Origin: an uncultured Planctomycetota bacterium | GTDB lineage: Bacteria > Planctomycetota > Planctomycetia > Pirellulales > PNKZ01 | DNA: 64,000 nt | Direction of reading: 5' to 3' | NCBI GenBank assembly: GCA_963708675.1 | Contig: CAVPTO010000003.1 | Coordinates: forward strand, 3,595,477 to 3,659,476 | Part shown: positions 11,587 to 31,374 of the stretch, in pieces | Numbering within the stretch: position 1 is the stretch's first letter | Layout: every line of letters starts with the position of its first letter | Made by a program: the position numbers and the translations under genes | The notes under the pieces: model-generated | What the model saw: only the letters and a program-made list of their open reading frames with translations | Database searches by the model: none | Told to the model about the DNA's origin: nothing

Positions 11587-13179
11587 TCACTTCGCTTGCT
11601 CGGGATGCGTCTTCGCCCAGGCGCGATATTCGTCGAGCGTGTAGAACGTGTTATGGCGATAGAGCCGACCGCCTTCTTCGACGAGCTCGTTCGAGTTGAA
11701 CGTCCACGCGTCGCCGTTCTTGCGCATCAGTTCGGCAAGACGGCGGTCCATGTCGCTTTGAAGCACGGCATGGGCCGGATCGCCGACGAGGTTGTGCATC
11801 TGTGCCGGATCGTTCTTGTCGTCGAACAGCAGCCACGGCTCGTCCTCGAAACGCGCGTATGTGGCGTCGGCCGTGATGATGCCTCGCCACGGCTTGGCGA
11901 CCTGATCGCCAGGGTACGGCACGAAGATCTGTAGCAGCACGGCATCGGGCCCGTCGGTCGTTTCGCCTCGGGCAACGCGCGACAGATCGGCGCCTTGCAT
12001 GTTCGCTGGCACGGGTAGGCCGGCAAGCGCTAACAACGTCGGGGCCATATCGACGTGACTGAACAACGTGTCGACGACCGTGCCCTGCGGAATGCCCGCA
12101 GGCCAGCGGATGATTCCCGGCACGCGGGCTGACTCGTCGTGCGGCTTTCGCTTGCGGCGGAGGCCGTGCGAGTTGAGCATGTCGCCGTGATCGGACATGA
12201 AGAGCACGATCGTGTTTTTGTCGAACCCTTGCTCGTCGAGCGTCTTCATCAATCGGCCGACCTGATCGTCGAGGGCCGTGATGGCGGCGTAATAAGCGGC
12301 GATCTCTTCGAACGTGCCGGGTCGGATCTGTCGATTGAGCGCCGCGCGTTGCTTCGCCTTCGCGTTGGATTCGTCTCCGTCGGCCGTATCTTTCGCACGT
12401 TGCCAGTTCGCCGGCGGCGTGATGCGCTCGGGAATATACTGCCGCGTGTACTCATCCGGCGCGCCATACGGATCGTGCGGAGGCCCCATCTGCACCGTGA
12501 GAAAGAATGGCTGATCCTTCGGCTGCGATTGGAGAAACTCCACGGCGAAATCGCACGACGCTTCGGGTTCGAACTTGTGCGCCGTGATGACCTTCGGCGA
12601 GTCGCGAAAGTACGTCGGCTCGAAGTGCTTGTGATGACACTCGTAAGCGGCCCAAAACTCGAAGCCTTGTCGTCGCGGCCCCGGCGGAACGAACCCGGGA
12701 TCGCGAGGCCCGCCATCGAGGTGCCACTTGCCGACGAAGCCCGTGCGATAGCCCGCTTCGCGCAAGATTTCGGCCAGCGTGACCGTCTCCTCGCGCAGTC
12801 GCAGATCGTTGGCGATCATGCCGTTGACGTGTGGATATGTGCCCGTGAGCAGAATCGCCCGCGCGGGACAGCAGACCGGCGTGTTCGCATACGTGCGGCG
12901 AAAGCGCATCCCCTCGGCCGCGAGCCGATCAATGTTCGGTGTCTTCACGTCAACGTTGCCATCGCAGTGCATCGCGCTGCCGCGCATTTGATCGGGCAGG
13001 ATCAGCAGAATGTTCGGCCTGGCAGCGGCGGCCGCATCACTCGCAATCAGAACGAGCAAAGCGACAATCGCGAAGCCCCTGTAGGGAACGCCCTCTGTGG
13101 CGTTCCGTGAGGCGGCGTGGAACGCAATCACTGACTTCGCGGAACGCCACGGAGGGCGTTCCCTACAGGTTGAGAGCAT
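11587..13179 (-). CDS. Formylglycine-dependent (S1) sulfatase; REPIN inserted in frame in the N-terminus
   Basis: RPNILLILPDQ, catalytic CCPAR.LLTG, GKWHL and SDHG. ATG at 13179 rather than the track start at 13386. Confidence 0.92.
   Translation of the reverse strand: MLSTCRERPPWRSAKSVIAFHAASRNATEGVPYRGFAIVALLVLIASDAAAAARPNILLILPDQMRGSAMHCDGNVDVKTPNIDRLAAEGMRFRRTYANTPVCCPARAILLTGTYPHVNGMIANDLRLREETVTLAEILREAGYRTGFVGKWHLDGGPRDPGFVPPGPRRQGFEFWAAYECHHKHFEPTYFRDSPKVITAHKFEPEASCDFAVEFLQSQPKDQPFFLTVQMGPPHDPYGAPDEYTRQYIPERITPPANWQRAKDTADGDESNAKAKQRAALNRQIRPGTFEEIAAYYAAITALDDQVGRLMKTLDEQGFDKNTIVLFMSDHGDMLNSHGLRRKRKPHDESARVPGIIRWPAGIPQGTVVDTLFSHVDMAPTLLALAGLPVPANMQGADLSRVARGETTDGPDAVLLQIFVPYPGDQVAKPWRGIITADATYARFEDEPWLLFDDKNDPAQMHNLVGDPAHAVLQSDMDRRLAELMRKNGDAWTFNSNELVEEGGRLYRHNTFYTLDEYRAWAKTHPEQAK
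13079..13168. repeat. GTAG-tagged REPIN (CTGTAG-GGAACGCC-CTCYGT-GGCGTTCC inverted pair), copy 1
   Basis: Two inverted 28-nt REPs, the same as those at 31286..31374. Confidence 0.92.
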
Positions 13180-13844
13180 CGGTCGCTGGGCGGCGCGAGA
13201 ACGCCGTGAAGAATGATTTCGATCAAGGCGGTGGTCTGCTCGTCGATCGTGGTTTTGCGACCGACGAAACGGTTCGTGAACATCGTACCGTAGAGCAGGC
13301 CACTGACGGTGTCGAGCATCCCTTCGACCGGAATGTCGCTGCGGAACCGACCTTCGCCGACCATGCGCGTGTACAGCTCGCGCCACGGTGCGCGGTTGGC
13401 GTCGCGGTGCTCGAAGTAGATCGAACGCTTGCTGTCGCGGAAGATCGCACGTTCTTGAATCTGTAGCTCGACGTAGTGCGGGTTCTCGTCGAAGAACGCG
13501 AGATACGCCCGAATGCCGCGCCGCATGCGTTCGAGTGGATCGTCAGTCGCCTCGGCCGCCGCGCGAACGTGGCATTGCATCTGTGACATGCCGAGGTCGA
13601 CGCAGGCGAAGAACAGCTCCTGCTTGCCTGGGAAGTACAGGTACAGCGTCCCTTTGGCGACGCCGACCTCGGCCGCGACGCTGTCCATTTCGCAGTCGTT
13701 GTACCCCTTCTCGGCAAACAGCCGGGCCGCCGCCTCGATGATCGCCCGATGACGCACCGCTCGGCGATCTTCTTTGGGGCAGCCGTCCTTCGGGCGGTTG
13801 TCCTCAACGAGTACTTCCTTAGCAGCAGCAGTCTTCGTTTTCAT
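13128..13844 (-). CDS. TetR/AcrR family transcriptional regulator
   Basis: HTH region IIEAAARLFAEKGY...VAAEVGVAKGTLYLYFPGKQELF. Divergent from the efflux operon. The stop codon lies inside the REPIN. Confidence 0.93.
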   Translation of the reverse strand: MKTKTAAAKEVLVEDNRPKDGCPKEDRRAVRHRAIIEAAARLFAEKGYNDCEMDSVAAEVGVAKGTLYLYFPGKQELFFACVDLGMSQMQCHVRAAAEATDDPLERMRRGIRAYLAFFDENPHYVELQIQERAIFRDSKRSIYFEHRDANRAPWRELYTRMVGEGRFRSDIPVEGMLDTVSGLLYGTMFTNRFVGRKTTIDEQTTALIEIILHGVLAPPSDRCSQPVGNALRGVPRSQ

Positions 13845-13955: not shown

Positions 13956-13985
13956 CTGACTGACCGGTCAGTCATTAAGTATAAC
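13956..13985 (+). promoter_or_regulatory. Putative sigma70 promoter (-35 CTGACT, -10 TATAAC) for the efflux operon
   Basis: Near-consensus -10 at 13980..13985 with 18-nt spacing. It overlaps the operator. Confidence 0.45.
13957..13974. promoter_or_regulatory. Perfect 18-bp palindrome TGACTGACCGGTCAGTCA, probable TetR operator
   Basis: Exact inverted repeat in the tetR/MFP divergent intergenic region, 5 nt upstream of TATAAC. Confidence 0.8.
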
Positions 13986-14019
13986 GGTTTTGGGGCTCGC
14001 ATCAACCGCGGATTCGTGC

Positions 14020-15213
14020 ATGCACGCCAAAAGTAACTCCCGACTCCTCGCCCGGCCAATTCTCTGGTTCGGTTGCGCCAGCGTTGTGGTCCTTGCCGTC
14101 ATCGCCGGCTGCCATCGACCCGAGCCGAAGGCCGTCGTCACCAAGCCGCCCGATGTTTTGGTTTCTTATCCGACCGAAGAAACCATTACCGAGTATGAGG
14201 AGTTCACTGGTCGCACGATGGCGATCTCGACCGTCGAGATTCGCGCGCGCGTGAGTGGCTATCTCGATCGAAACTTTTTCGTCGACGGCGCCGACGTGAA
14301 GGCGGGCGAGCCGTTGTTTCAAATTGATCCGCGTCCGTTCCAGGCCGAGGTCGATCGCGCTGCGGCGGCGGTCGCGCAAGCAGAATCGCGCTTGGTGCGG
14401 CTCGAACGTCAGGAAGAACGCGCTCGTAAGTTGCGTGGCACCGGCGCCGTGACGGAAGAAGGTTACGACCTCGCTCGCTTCGATCGCGATGAGGCGCATG
14501 CCGCGCTGCTGGCGGCTCGAGCGATGGCCGAGACGGCGAACCTGAACCTGGGCTTCACGCACATCAACTCGCCGATCACCGGTCGCATCAGCCGTCGGCT
14601 TGTCGACCCCGGCAATTTGATTCAGGCCGACACGACGCCGCTGGCGAATATCGTCACGCAGGATCCGATCTACGGGTACTTCGACTTCGATGAACGCACG
14701 GCACTCCGCTTGCGCCGCATGATCATTGACGAAAAGCTGCCGGACATGAAGCACGCGCACTTGGACGTGAAGTTCTCGCTGGCCGATCAAGACAAGTTCA
14801 CGATTCCTGGCACGATCGATTTTCTCGACAACCAGGTCGACTCGGCAACCGGAACGCTGCGCGTGCGTGCCGTGATCAACAATAAGGACAACCTTCTGTC
14901 GCCGGGATTGTTCGTGCGTGTGCAAGTGCCGGTGAGCCAACCGCACGCCGCCATTCTTGTGCGTGAAGAAGCGCTGGGGACCGATCAGGGGCAACGTTAC
15001 GTGTACGTCGTCGATGATAAGGATGAAATCTCCTATCGGCGCGTGAAGGCTGGCTTTCTCAACGAGGGACGCCGGGTGATTGAGTCGGGTCTGAAGACGA
15101 CCGATCGCGTGGTGGTGCGTGGCCTGCAGCGCGTGCGTCCCGGCGTGAAGGTGGTTCCGAAGCCTGCCGACAGCAGCAGCGATTTGGCCGCAACGCCTGC
15201 GAATCGCGGGTAA
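14020..15213 (+). CDS. RND efflux periplasmic adaptor (MFP, AcrA/MdtA-like)
   Basis: VEIRARVSGYL, I.SPITGRISRRLVDPGNL, IDFLDNQVDSATGT and LLSPGLFVRV. Confidence 0.93.
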   Translation: MHAKSNSRLLARPILWFGCASVVVLAVIAGCHRPEPKAVVTKPPDVLVSYPTEETITEYEEFTGRTMAISTVEIRARVSGYLDRNFFVDGADVKAGEPLFQIDPRPFQAEVDRAAAAVAQAESRLVRLERQEERARKLRGTGAVTEEGYDLARFDRDEAHAALLAARAMAETANLNLGFTHINSPITGRISRRLVDPGNLIQADTTPLANIVTQDPIYGYFDFDERTALRLRRMIIDEKLPDMKHAHLDVKFSLADQDKFTIPGTIDFLDNQVDSATGTLRVRAVINNKDNLLSPGLFVRVQVPVSQPHAAILVREEALGTDQGQRYVYVVDDKDEISYRRVKAGFLNEGRRVIESGLKTTDRVVVRGLQRVRPGVKVVPKPADSSSDLAATPANRG

Positions 15214-15235
15214 AGGCCTCAGGCGGCGTCCTCCT

Positions 15236-18200
15236 ATGTTCGCGCGATTCTTCATCGATCGACCGATCTTCGCCAGCGTGCTGTCGATCTTGATCACGCT
15301 CGCTGGCGCGATCGCGGTCTTCACGCTGCCCATCGCGCAGTATCCGGCCGTCGCGCCGCCGACGGTGCAAATCGACTGCAACTACCCAGGCGCAAGCGCT
15401 CAGGTGGTCGCATCGACCGTGGCCTCGCCGATCGAGCAGCAGGTGAACGGTGTCGAGCGAATGCTCTACATGTCGAGCCAAAGCACCAGCGACGGCTCGT
15501 ACACGCTGACCGTGACGTTCGAGCCGGGCGTCGATTTGGACGTCGCGCAGGTGCTGGTGCAAAACCGCGTCAGCCTGGCGATGCCGCTGCTGCCCGACGT
15601 CGTGCGTGCGACCGGCATCACGATGCGCAAACGCTCGCCCGATATTTTGATGACGGTCAGCCTGAGCTCGCCCGACGACCGCTACGACCAGTTGTATCTC
15701 AGCAACTACGCGGTGCTCCATTGCAAAGACGAGTTGGCTCGCCTCAAGGGCATCAGCGAAGTGCTCGTCTTTGGCCAGCGCGACTACAGCATGCGCGTGT
15801 GGCTCGACCCCGATAAGCTCGCCATGCGCAACTTGTCGGTCGCCGACGTCATCAACGCTATTCGCGAGCAAAACCTGCAAGTCGCTGCGGGCCAAATCGG
15901 TCAGCCGCCCGGCGAGGCTGGCCAAGTGCTGCAAGTGCCGATGACCACGCTCGGCCGCCTGACGGATGTCGATCAGTTCGAAAACATTATCGTCCACGCG
16001 ACACACGCCGGTCAGGTGATTCGCATCAAGGACGTCGGCCGTGTCAATCTCGGCGCGCGCAGCGAAGACGTCAGCAACCGGTTCGACGGCAAGCCGACCG
16101 TCGGTCTCGCGGTGTTCATCTTGTCGGATGCCAACTCGCTCGACACCGCCGACGCAGTGAAGTCGATGATGAAGGAGCTGTCGAAAGATTTTCCCGAGGG
16201 GATGATTTATCAGACCGGCTACGACACGACGCCGTTCATTCGCGAAAGCGTGAACGAGGTGTTCAAGGCCCTCGGCGACGCGATTTTGCTGGTGTCGCTG
16301 GTGGTGTTGGTCTTCTTGCAAGGTTGGCGCGCGGCGATCATTCCGCTCATCGCGGTGCCGGTGGCGATCATTGGCACGTTCGCCGCGATGGCGGTCGTCG
16401 GTTTCAGCATCAACAACCTGACGTTGTTCGGCCTCGTGCTCGCCATCGGCATCGTCGTCGACGACGCGATCGTGGTGGTCGAAGCGGTCGAGCATCACAT
16501 CGAAAACGGCCTCAAGCCGCGTGAGGCCGCGATCGCGGCGATGCAGCAAGTCGCGGGCCCCGTGATCGCCGTCGGCTTGGTGCTCAGCGCGGTGTTCATC
16601 CCATGCGCGTTCATCACTGGCGTCGTCGGCGAGTTCTTCCGGCAGTTCGCCCTCACGATTGCCGTGTCGACGATTTTGTCGATGTTCAACTCGCTCACGC
16701 TCAGCCCGGCGCTTGCGGCGTTGTTGCTCAAGCCTCGCGATCAGAAGCCCGACCTGCTCACACGGGTCATTGATTTCACGCTCGGTTGGTTCTTCCGGCT
16801 GTTCAATTACACCTTCAAGCGATCGACCGACTTCTATGTCGGCATGGTGTCGCGGATGTTGCGAATGTCGGCCGGCGTGCTCGTTGTCTATGGCGGACTG
16901 TTGGCCCTCACGTATTGGGGCTTCTTGCAGTTGCCGACAGGTTTTATTCCGTCGCAAGACAAGGGCTATTTCATCGCCAGCGTGCAGTTGCCCGACGCGA
17001 CGGCCGCCGAACGCACGAGCGAAATCATGGCGCGCATCGAACGCATCGCTATGGAGACGCCCGGCGTCAAGAACGTGAACTCCGTGGCAGGCAACTCGTT
17101 CATGCTGTCGGCCTACGGCTCGAACTTTGGTTCGATGTTCATCATTCTCAAAGACTTCGCCGATCGAAAATCGCCCGAGATGAAGGGGGACGCCATCCTT
17201 GCCGCGATGCGAAAGCGGTACGCCAACGAAGTGCCCGAAGCGCTCGTGAACGTTTTCCCGCCGCCTGCCGTGTCGGGTCTCGGACGTTCGGGCGGTTTCA
17301 AGATCATGGTCGAAGACCGCGGCGACAACGGCCTCGACATCCTGCAAGGACAGACCGACAACCTGATCGAACAGGCGAACTTGCAGCCCGAACTGAGCGG
17401 GTTGTTCACGGTCTTCAACGCCAATTCGCCACAACTGTTCATCGATATCGACCGCACCGAGTGCATGACGCAAGGCATTAACCTCGGCGACGTGTTCAGC
17501 ACGTTGCAGGGCTACCTGGGTTCGCGGTATGTGAACGACTTCAATCGCTTTGGCCGCACGTGGCAGGTGGTGGTGCAGGCCGACTCGCAGTTTCGCGACC
17601 AGATCGAAGACGTTCGCAAGCTGCGCGTCCACAACTCGCGCGGGGGCATGGTGCCGCTCGGCTCGTTGGCGACGGTGCGGCAAGTCAGTGGGCCGCTCGT
17701 ACTCACGCGCTACAACATGTATCCCGCGGCCTCCATTCAAGGCAATGTCGCCAACGGCATCAGCACGGGGCAGGGCATCGCGGTGATGGAAAAGCTCGCG
17801 AAGCTGGAACTCCCTTCGTCGATGGCGGCCGAGTGGACCGAGATCACGTTCATCGAGCAGATGTCGCAAAACACCGGCATGATGGTGTTCGGCCTGTCGG
17901 TGGTGTTCGTGTTTCTTGTGCTCGCGGCGCTCTACGAAAGTTGGTCGCTGCCGCTGGCGGTGATTCTCGTCGTGCCGATGTGCGTGCTCAGCTCAATCGC
18001 CGGCGTGGCGTATGCCGACATGGACATCAACGTCTTCACGCAGATCGGGTTCATTGTGCTCATCGGCCTGGCGAGCAAAAACGCGATCCTCATCGTCGAG
18101 TTCGCCAAGATGAAGCACGACGCCGGCGCCAGCCGCCGCGAGGCGACGCTCGAAGCGTGTACGTTGCGATTGCGGCCGATCATGATGACGTCGTTCGCGT

Positions 18201-18637
18201 TTATTCTTGGCGTCGTGCCGCTGCTGTTTGCCGAAGGTGCAGGCGCTGAAATGCGTCGCACGCTGGGGACCGCGGTGTTTAGCGGAATGTTGGGTGTGAC
18301 GCTGTTCGGCATCTTCCTGACACCCGTGTTCTTCTTCGTCATTGAGTCGGTGGCTGAAGCTCGCGCTCACTCGAAGAGTTTCGCCACGCGCGCCTCGTCG
18401 GTCGTTCTCGACGTGATCAGCCTCGGCTTCGCGCGACGTGGCGTGATGCGCGGCTTGGCGAGCATGGCGTATGCGATGCGTCGGCCGTTCCGTTCGCGCA
18501 AACCTCCCATCGTTCATTCTCCCGCCGCTCGCGACGAGCGTTTGAACCCGCTGCCGCGCATGAGCGACAGCGGCCATCATCTCGACCTTTCCACGCGCGG
18601 CGGCCCCGGCCCTTCGCACTCGAAACGCCACGGCTAA
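15236..18637 (+). CDS. HAE1 RND efflux permease, subunit 1 (long C-terminal tail)
   Basis: FFIDRPIFASVLS, GIVVDDAIVVVE, ASKNAILIVEF and LRLRPIMMTS. Confidence 0.95.
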   Translation: MFARFFIDRPIFASVLSILITLAGAIAVFTLPIAQYPAVAPPTVQIDCNYPGASAQVVASTVASPIEQQVNGVERMLYMSSQSTSDGSYTLTVTFEPGVDLDVAQVLVQNRVSLAMPLLPDVVRATGITMRKRSPDILMTVSLSSPDDRYDQLYLSNYAVLHCKDELARLKGISEVLVFGQRDYSMRVWLDPDKLAMRNLSVADVINAIREQNLQVAAGQIGQPPGEAGQVLQVPMTTLGRLTDVDQFENIIVHATHAGQVIRIKDVGRVNLGARSEDVSNRFDGKPTVGLAVFILSDANSLDTADAVKSMMKELSKDFPEGMIYQTGYDTTPFIRESVNEVFKALGDAILLVSLVVLVFLQGWRAAIIPLIAVPVAIIGTFAAMAVVGFSINNLTLFGLVLAIGIVVDDAIVVVEAVEHHIENGLKPREAAIAAMQQVAGPVIAVGLVLSAVFIPCAFITGVVGEFFRQFALTIAVSTILSMFNSLTLSPALAALLLKPRDQKPDLLTRVIDFTLGWFFRLFNYTFKRSTDFYVGMVSRMLRMSAGVLVVYGGLLALTYWGFLQLPTGFIPSQDKGYFIASVQLPDATAAERTSEIMARIERIAMETPGVKNVNSVAGNSFMLSAYGSNFGSMFIILKDFADRKSPEMKGDAILAAMRKRYANEVPEALVNVFPPPAVSGLGRSGGFKIMVEDRGDNGLDILQGQTDNLIEQANLQPELSGLFTVFNANSPQLFIDIDRTECMTQGINLGDVFSTLQGYLGSRYVNDFNRFGRTWQVVVQADSQFRDQIEDVRKLRVHNSRGGMVPLGSLATVRQVSGPLVLTRYNMYPAASIQGNVANGISTGQGIAVMEKLAKLELPSSMAAEWTEITFIEQMSQNTGMMVFGLSVVFVFLVLAALYESWSLPLAVILVVPMCVLSSIAGVAYADMDINVFTQIGFIVLIGLASKNAILIVEFAKMKHDAGASRREATLEACTLRLRPIMMTSFAFILGVVPLLFAEGAGAEMRRTLGTAVFSGMLGVTLFGIFLTPVFFFVIESVAEARAHSKSFATRASSVVLDVISLGFARRGVMRGLASMAYAMRRPFRSRKPPIVHSPAARDERLNPLPRMSDSGHHLDLSTRGGPGPSHSKRHG

Positions 18638-31285: not shown

Positions 31286-31374
31286 CTGTAGGGAACGCCC
31301 TCTGTGGCGTTCCGCGAGCTGCGATCGACGCCGACACGCGATTCACGGAACGCCACGGAGGGCGTTCCCTACAG
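31286..31374. repeat. GTAG-tagged REPIN, copy 2
   Basis: Both REP arms are identical to those at 13079..13168; the spacer differs. Confidence 0.92.

Follow-up and report, generated by a model that had tools for sequence, protein, structure and literature searches.

A GTAG-tagged REP doublet at the overlap of a TetR-family regulator gene and a sulfatase gene in a planctomycete: a probable insertion

The locus described here lies at the junction of two co-directional genes, one encoding a TetR-family regulator and the other a sulfatase, in a planctomycete genome of 6.7 Mb (60.6% G+C, 97% complete). The closest named relatives are Planctomycetaceae/Schlesneria-like MAGs. The window, that is, the whole 64-kb stretch of DNA that was analysed, corresponds to C3:3595477-3659476 of this genome. 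Both genes are read on the minus strand, and the 3' end of the regulator gene meets the 5' end of the sulfatase gene within a palindromic repeat. The relevant features, by position in the window, are the following.

11587..13179, minus strand: sulfatase gene (PF00884, E = 1.6e-61), 530 aa from the upstream ATG, 514 aa from the GTG at 13131-13129
13021..13077, minus strand: predicted remainder of the signal peptide without the repeat, composed of G, the core FAIVALLVLIA and the c-region SDAAAAA (from the translation)
13079..13168, no strand assigned: REPIN-like GTAG-tagged REP doublet of 90 nt, CTGTAG...CTACAG (from the hairpin, the genomic family and the CT/AG flanks)
13079-80 and 13167-68: conserved CT/AG flanks of the doublet
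13081..13107, plus strand: left REP, with the GTAG tag and its own 8-bp stem (GGAACGCC / GGCGTTCC, 6-nt loop), read directly from the sequence
13108..13139, no strand assigned: variable loop of 32 nt, with GTGA (13131-13128) on the minus strand (loops vary among copies, arms are conserved)
13128..13844, minus strand: TetR-family regulator gene (PF00440, E = 9.4e-18), with its TGA stop (13130-13128) within the repeat loop
13129..13131, minus strand: GTG of the loop, in frame with the sulfatase and sharing the bases GTGA with the TetR stop, a candidate re-initiation start (sequence reading)
13140..13166, minus strand: right REP, an inverted copy with 0 mismatches (consensus comparison)
13177..13179, minus strand: ATG at which the sulfatase probably started before the insertion, located 10 nt ahead of the base of the hairpin (from excision of 90 nt)
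13978..14005, minus strand: the only sigma-70-like promoter match upstream of the TetR gene (consensus scan)
31286..31374, no strand assigned: second copy of the junction repeat, intergenic (15-mer search of the window)

The sulfatase carries the Cys-x-Pro-x-Arg motif in the form CCPAR and is, by sequence, a formylglycine-dependent sulfatase. The conserved RPNILLILPDQ comes directly after the SDAAAAA c-region. Read by eye, FAIVALLVLIA and SDAAAAA before RPNILL form the layout of a Sec-type signal peptide, and the leaders of the orthologues are laid out alike. The TetR gene and an MFP-RND efflux operon are arranged divergently; this layout is conserved in about 75 related loci and in keeping with the assignment of the gene to the TetR family. 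Homology to relatives stops near residue 217; after the last conserved TetR helix, the tails found among relatives measure 3-65 aa and are unconserved. In a sigma-70 consensus scan, of limited value in planctomycetes, nothing promoter-like turned up from the TetR start to the sulfatase, which makes a single transcript plausible.

The junction repeat is laid out as CT-GTAGGGAACGCCCTCTGTGGCGTTCCG, the 32-nt loop and CGGAACGCCACGGAGGGCGTTCCCTAC-AG. Its arms follow the formula GTAG-GGAACGCC-CTCYGT-GGCGTTCC-G, that is, a short GTAG-tagged palindrome with an 8-bp stem and a 6-nt loop. A stem-loop arm tagged with GTAG is the classical REP layout. The left REP (13081-13107) differs at 1 position from the 27-nt family consensus. 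Folded as RNA, the inverted pair gives a near-perfect hairpin at -73.2 kcal/mol, compared with -40.8 +/- 4.0 for shuffled sequences (z = -8.2), and none of 200 dinucleotide shuffles was equally stable. The 15-mer core GTAGGGAACGCCCTC occurs four times in the 64-kb window, where 0.13 occurrences are expected. An intrinsic terminator was considered as a role for this hairpin and rejected, on finding neither a terminator-like match nor a U-tract. By analogy with other REP-type elements, a contribution to mRNA stability or polarity between TetR and the sulfatase is possible.

Genome-wide, there are 56 such doublets, located on two contigs, a copy number toward the low end for REPs. Their arms show a mean of 0.86 mismatches to the 27-nt consensus and their loops are variable. 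CT precedes GTAG in 48 of the 56 copies and AG follows CTAC in 51, positions further out being unconserved, so that the unit is to be read as CTGTAG...CTACAG. This unit is 88-90 nt long in 49 of the 56 copies, the junction copy being of 90 nt, and the span from GTAG to CTAC is 79-90 nt in all copies except one (126 nt). An earlier note on this DNA, made from the sequence alone, had recognized the GTAG-tagged REP doublet, and the hairpin and the dispersed genomic family bear this out. It had also measured the insert at 87 nt. The 29 codons that it read stand, but the family alignment gives a mobile unit of 90 nt; both lengths are multiples of three.

The position of the copies relative to genes was established with gene calls from a crude self-trained codon model, which separates real genes from antisense shadow ORFs. 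According to these calls, the family is dispersed and mostly extragenic, with 48 of the 56 copies being intergenic. In seven copies (7/56), the TAG of the terminal GTAG is the stop codon of the upstream gene. By the same calls, the junction copy is the only one of the 56 that combines a stop in the loop with a downstream gene starting in or before the repeat. Another copy of 90 nt (C4:382975-383064) lies in frame within the N-terminal leader of an HtrA/DegP-like protease. There, MNMLRRSVKRLIHNSGP is followed by 30 residues encoded by the repeat, whose loop contains an in-frame ATG, and the protein continues with LFVYAFAALLGFVSSSSAQE; the repeat-encoded residues are missing from orthologues of this protease. 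The ORFs between adjacent repeat copies are ordinary genes.

An open frame across the repeat was considered as a sign of translation and discarded as weak. Indeed, 44% of the combinations of copy, orientation and frame are stop-free (15% are stop-free and a multiple of three), and stop-to-stop ORFs also run through several plainly extragenic copies.

The family can be compared with several known systems. Like REPINs (Bertels and Rainey, 2011; Ton-Hoang et al., 2012), it consists of REP doublets forming a long hairpin, in tens of dispersed copies. In E. coli, the cleavage sites of TnpA-REP map to C|T (PMC3333891), which the repeat ends CT/GTAG and CC|TACAG resemble, as a resemblance only. In contrast with RAYT-linked REPINs, neither the source genome nor three repeat-rich relatives yielded a Y1 transposase gene with the same REP on its flanks. 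The source genome contains four matches to PF01797, none with a junction-type REP within 1.5 kb, and the 17 matches in the repeat-rich relatives G010, G015 and G022 are likewise not flanked by such a repeat. Hence, the name "REPIN" used in the earlier note holds for the doublet and its hairpin, and is putative in the strict, RAYT-linked sense. REPtron loss has been documented in other species (PMC3733652).

The closest parallels are the GTAG REPs, which have been reported in Planctomycetes, in R. baltica (Di Nocera et al., 2013, BMC Genomics 14:522, PMC3733652). In that work, the GTAG termini often supply TAG stops to flanking ORFs, and REP dimers located inside ORFs encode 20-30 aa; many of these are N-terminal, where they are possibly extragenic. 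The present family shares with them the GTAG beside a short stem-loop, the inverted doublets, the mainly intergenic location and the use of terminal TAGs as stops of flanking genes, and the junction copy resembles the in-ORF dimers in being N-terminal and, as read here, coding. The family is absent from the R. baltica GTAG-20/21 families of the supplements to PMC3733652. Two further differences concern the junction itself: the stop comes from the variable loop and not from a terminal TAG, and a single copy serves two overlapping genes.

Both reading frames enter the repeat. The TetR frame passes the first arm as CT GTA GGG AAC ... and ends as ...APPSDRCSQPVGNALRGVPRSQ, followed by TGA in the loop. 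The last 13 TetR codons (PVGNALRGVPRSQ) and the stop are made of repeat sequence, in agreement with the earlier proposal that the repeat is the source of the final residues of the regulator and of its stop. On the sulfatase side, the minus strand reads ATG CTC TCA ACC (13179-13168), 29 codons CRERPPWRSAKSVIAFHAASRNATEGVPY (13167-13081), then RGFAIVALLVLIASDAAAAARPN. From the ATG, the predicted protein starts with MLST, continues with 29-30 repeat-encoded residues, and goes on with (R)GFAIVALLVLIASDAAAAARPNILLILPDQ. An in-frame insert in the 5' end of the sulfatase had been proposed, and the 90 nt are indeed a multiple of three with no stop from ATG 13179. The in-frame GTG that had been pointed out within the repeat is also present, sharing GTGA with the TetR stop.

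A sulfatase start downstream of the repeat was considered and rejected. Because the hydrophobic core begins three codons past the repeat, no usable start follows it; the sole in-frame candidate is a TTG inside the core, which would leave no signal peptide. Export of the sulfatase, as in its relatives, would thus require the 3' half of the repeat, at least, to be coding. For the same reason, namely that there is no start downstream of the repeat, the caveat of a possibly extragenic position raised for N-terminal dimers (PMC3733652) does not apply at the junction.

The sulfatase was compared with 116 orthologues of 67-78% identity, the leader being taken to extend from the start codon as called up to the PNI anchor, which is conserved. 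The orthologue leaders have a median length of 25 aa (n=116). The leader of the source sulfatase measures 54 aa when counted from the ATG and 38 aa when counted from the GTG; without the 90 nt it would measure 24 aa. Leaders as long as 54 aa occur in 5 of the 116 orthologues, and leaders of at least 38 aa in 16. Excision of the 90 nt gives MLSTGFAIVALLVLIASDAAAAARPN, with the 24-aa leader and a protein of 500 aa, which is the typical length of the family; the compact signal peptide anticipated after deletion of the insert is thus recovered. Excision of 86 or 88 nt instead breaks both frames, which supports a unit of 90 nt. None of the 116 orthologues carries the insert, and repeat-like residues are absent from those orthologue leaders that were inspected. 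Neither of the two observations that would have counted against the earlier note is thus seen: no usable start lies past the repeat, and orthologues without the repeat do not have the extension. After excision, the pre-insertion TetR would end as ...DRCSQRASRLSLCSF and would overlap the sulfatase start by about 41 nt (counted on the excised sequence), so that the repeat would have landed within a pre-existing gene overlap.

Taken together, we consider it likely, with a probability of roughly 0.7, that a 90-nt REP doublet inserted where the 3' end of the TetR gene overlapped the 5' end of the co-directional sulfatase gene. We infer this event rather than observe it directly, and the sequence comparisons make it well supported. 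In the TetR frame, the first arm is open and the loop provides a TGA, such that an unconserved tail of about 10 residues would have given way to a new stop preceded by 13 residues of repeat origin. For the sulfatase, the unit contains no stop and its length is divisible by three, so that the old ATG 13179 still leads into the gene; the n-region of a Sec-type signal peptide would thereby be lengthened by 30 residues. The loop GTG overlapping the TetR stop would provide a second start, the use of which would be coupled to translation of TetR. Whichever start is used, the residues encoded by the repeat would be located upstream of the hydrophobic core and would therefore be removed with the signal peptide, leaving the mature sulfatase unchanged. 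The TetR tail is variable and cleavage of the leader is expected, so that an insertion there was probably tolerated; these two properties would explain how a single event could change two genes and inactivate neither. It is plausible from the sequences that neither protein is broken by the repeat.

Several points speak against the insertion. First, the 54-aa leader exceeds 111 of the 116 orthologue leaders. Second, MLST(G), the n-region recovered on excision, lacks a positive charge. Third, a 40-bp hairpin located 10 nt past the ATG might hinder initiation or elongation. Finally, there is no empty site among the relatives; the closest sulfatase in a search of 5.8 billion proteins is 78% identical, and no relative of the TetR exceeds 67% identity (the best tblastn segment reaching up to 68%). 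An empty site, that is, the same junction without the repeat, was found neither in 40 related genomes nor in a contig database nor among the 5.8 billion proteins.

A rearrangement could instead have produced the junction, for instance by deletion or recombination between two REP doublets, or by the gain of a sulfatase block beside an existing repeat; the repeat would then mark a breakpoint and MLST would not be the ancestral N-terminus. The repeat does sit exactly on a synteny breakpoint. The TetR-MFP-RND block is found in about 75 loci, yet nothing downstream of TetR is common with the relatives, none of whose TetR genes is followed by an orthologous sulfatase. Moreover, no match to the sulfatase at E <= 1e-100 was obtained in any of the 40 related genomes, its best matches elsewhere (67-78% identical) coming from Planctomycetota and Verrucomicrobiota MAGs. 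Copies of the repeat also cluster regionally, with 8 copies within 69 kb, about 100-170 kb upstream of the junction. However, when exactly the family unit is excised, the leader returns to the modal length and has its start codon four codons ahead of the junction, which is not expected of a random breakpoint, and we regard a rearrangement as unlikely. Whether the junction arose by rearrangement or by insertion, the repeat, as its frames read, is still coding in both genes today.

Insertion could also have damaged the sulfatase, leaving an incipient pseudogene whose translation is limited by the hairpin, or which starts at the TTG without export. The hairpin is very stable, as its folding energy indicates, and planctomycete genomes are rich in sulfatase paralogues (195 first-look candidates here), so that the loss of one could be tolerable. 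However, the ORF is intact over 500 residues with 78% identity to orthologues, CCPAR is kept, and the coding score of the gene is typical for the genome. In addition, two in-frame upstream starts retain the full hydrophobic core and the c-region. Such damage appears very improbable.

If, as we favor, the doublet inserted into the gene overlap, the start codon in use in the sulfatase has to be considered. From sequence and folding estimates, we give the upstream ATG an even chance, hold the GTG to be a tentative candidate, and think it unlikely that both or another start are used. The normal leader restored by excision begins at ATG 13179. The energy needed to open the ATG region (-15 to +15) is 8.6 kcal/mol, versus a genome median of 13.3. 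By chance, the ATG frame would be free of stops and the repeat a multiple of three with a probability of about 0.15, and continued use of the ATG is therefore mildly favored.

Alternatively, the start would have been replaced. Through termination-reinitiation after the TetR TGA, the loop GTG 13131 would be the sole start of the sulfatase; the 5' arm would code for TetR alone, and the upstream in-frame ATG would be a leftover or a coincidence. Only the 3' half of the repeat would then be coding in the sulfatase, the N-terminus of which would be replaced and not interrupted. Four-nucleotide stop/start overlaps (ATGA/GTGA) are a sign of translational coupling in bacterial operons. As in these operons, the TetR TGA and the sulfatase GTG share GTGA, and the genes are co-directional with no promoter-like site between them; in contrast with the usual overlaps, this GTGA is supplied by a repeat and lies in the loop of a 40-bp hairpin, and its use is putative. 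Replacement of the start agrees with the GTGA overlap, with the absence of an internal promoter-like match in the scan, with a 38-aa leader that is inside the orthologue range, and with a stem that a TetR ribosome would already have melted when it terminates. The GTG is also the start chosen by the public gene call (P0003, 514 aa), which is a prediction and not evidence. Conversely, without coupling the GTG region costs 26.2 kcal/mol to open, above the 95th percentile of the genome (21.7). The open, in-phase ATG frame would have to be fortuitous, and, once a GTG is present, an A after it (TGA in the +1 frame) arises by chance with a probability of about 1/4 to 1/5. We therefore hold replacement of the start to be possible, at a clearly tentative level. 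Overall, everything that the earlier note reads in the sequence stands, and its interpretation is largely right for the DNA and tentative as regards translation.

A more speculative extension, which we consider improbable as it stands, would make the repeat a translational gate. The GTGA in the loop and the 40-bp stem would expose the sulfatase start only after a ribosome translating the TetR tail has melted the 5' arm and terminated in the loop, and the n-regions of signal peptides would be a preferred safe landing zone for the repeat. In connection with such a landing zone, the HtrA-like protease leader provides a second in-frame copy, and the REP is widely shared in planctomycetes. If the gate exists, the synthesis of the sulfatase would now be coupled to the translation of an efflux-pump repressor.

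Palindromic repeats lying in frame in proteins are best known from Rickettsia, where RPEs of about 150 nt have been described as "selfish DNA in protein-coding genes", nearly half of the copies being intragenic in some families (PMC10969869). As with RPEs, a palindromic mobile repeat is found here in frame in a part of a conserved gene that would accommodate additional residues. However, the junction element is of 90 nt and of the REP type, only 1-2 of the 56 copies are intragenic, and the mature protein is spared, the insert being confined to a leader for which cleavage is expected. Since the phenomenon is already documented in other bacteria, the value of the present case is illustrative and not conceptual. 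What is distinctive at the junction is the combination of one copy shared by two overlapping genes, a stop derived from the loop, and a GTGA overlap that may act as a start.

The junction provides a natural example of a selfish hairpin repeat that lands in coding DNA and survives, having struck a variable C-terminal tail and a signal peptide for which cleavage is expected, both among the least-constrained parts of proteins. It indicates that repeats of the REP type can donate stop codons and possibly start codons. Finally, gene callers will set the starts of exported proteins inconsistently around such repeats, which matters for the annotation of genomes that carry them.

The GTAG REP doublet, a 90-nt repeat present in 56 copies in the source genome (G000), also lies in frame in a second protein leader of that genome, on contig C4:

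C4:382975-383064, outside the window: second in-frame copy, 90 nt, within the leader at the N-terminus of a protease of HtrA/DegP-like type

In this leader, MNMLRRSVKRLIHNSGP is followed by 30 repeat-encoded residues and then by LFVYAFAALLGFVSSSSAQE, and the loop of the repeat carries an in-frame ATG. The repeat-encoded residues are missing from nine orthologues of the protease. Repeats also end genes: in seven G000 copies (for example at C3:4104243, C3:4513973, C4:412779, and C4:434539), the TAG of the terminal GTAG is the stop codon of the upstream gene, as described for GTAG REPs of other phyla.

Against a genome mean of about one copy per 120 kb, the copies are grouped by region, with two clusters on contig C3:

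C3:3435465-3504694: 8 copies in 69 kb
C3:4067735-4104328: 5 copies in 37 kb

The genome holds two copies of a Y1-transposase-like gene (229 aa):

C3:2959242-2959448: first copy
C3:5292521-5292856: second copy

About 87 N-terminal residues are identical in both, after which the frame of the first copy shifts; it is a frameshifted duplicate. The GTAG REP was not found flanking either copy.

Within the window, a long open frame faces a transporter gene:

15236-18637, plus strand: RND transporter gene
15059-17869, minus strand: stop-free ORF of 936 aa, antisense to it

Because its codon score is negative and its G+C content peaks at codon position 1, not position 3, this frame was rejected as a gene and is a shadow ORF, a reminder that ORF length in G000 is no evidence for a gene.

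With up to three mismatches permitted, the 26-nt REP GTAGGGAACGCCCTCCGTGGCGTTCC was found in 12 of 41 genomes, G000 counted in both figures. The 11 relatives, among them G006, G007, G010, G014-G017, G022, G023, and G027, represent seven genera and four families of the order; among the matches listed, exact copies occur in G007, G022, and G023, and doublets are most numerous in G022 (up to about 240). At the same tolerance, the REP is absent from the two genomes of the same genus as G000. Such patchy scattering of a near-identical REP over several families is unusual among REP families, and it suggests either strong constraint or horizontal spread.
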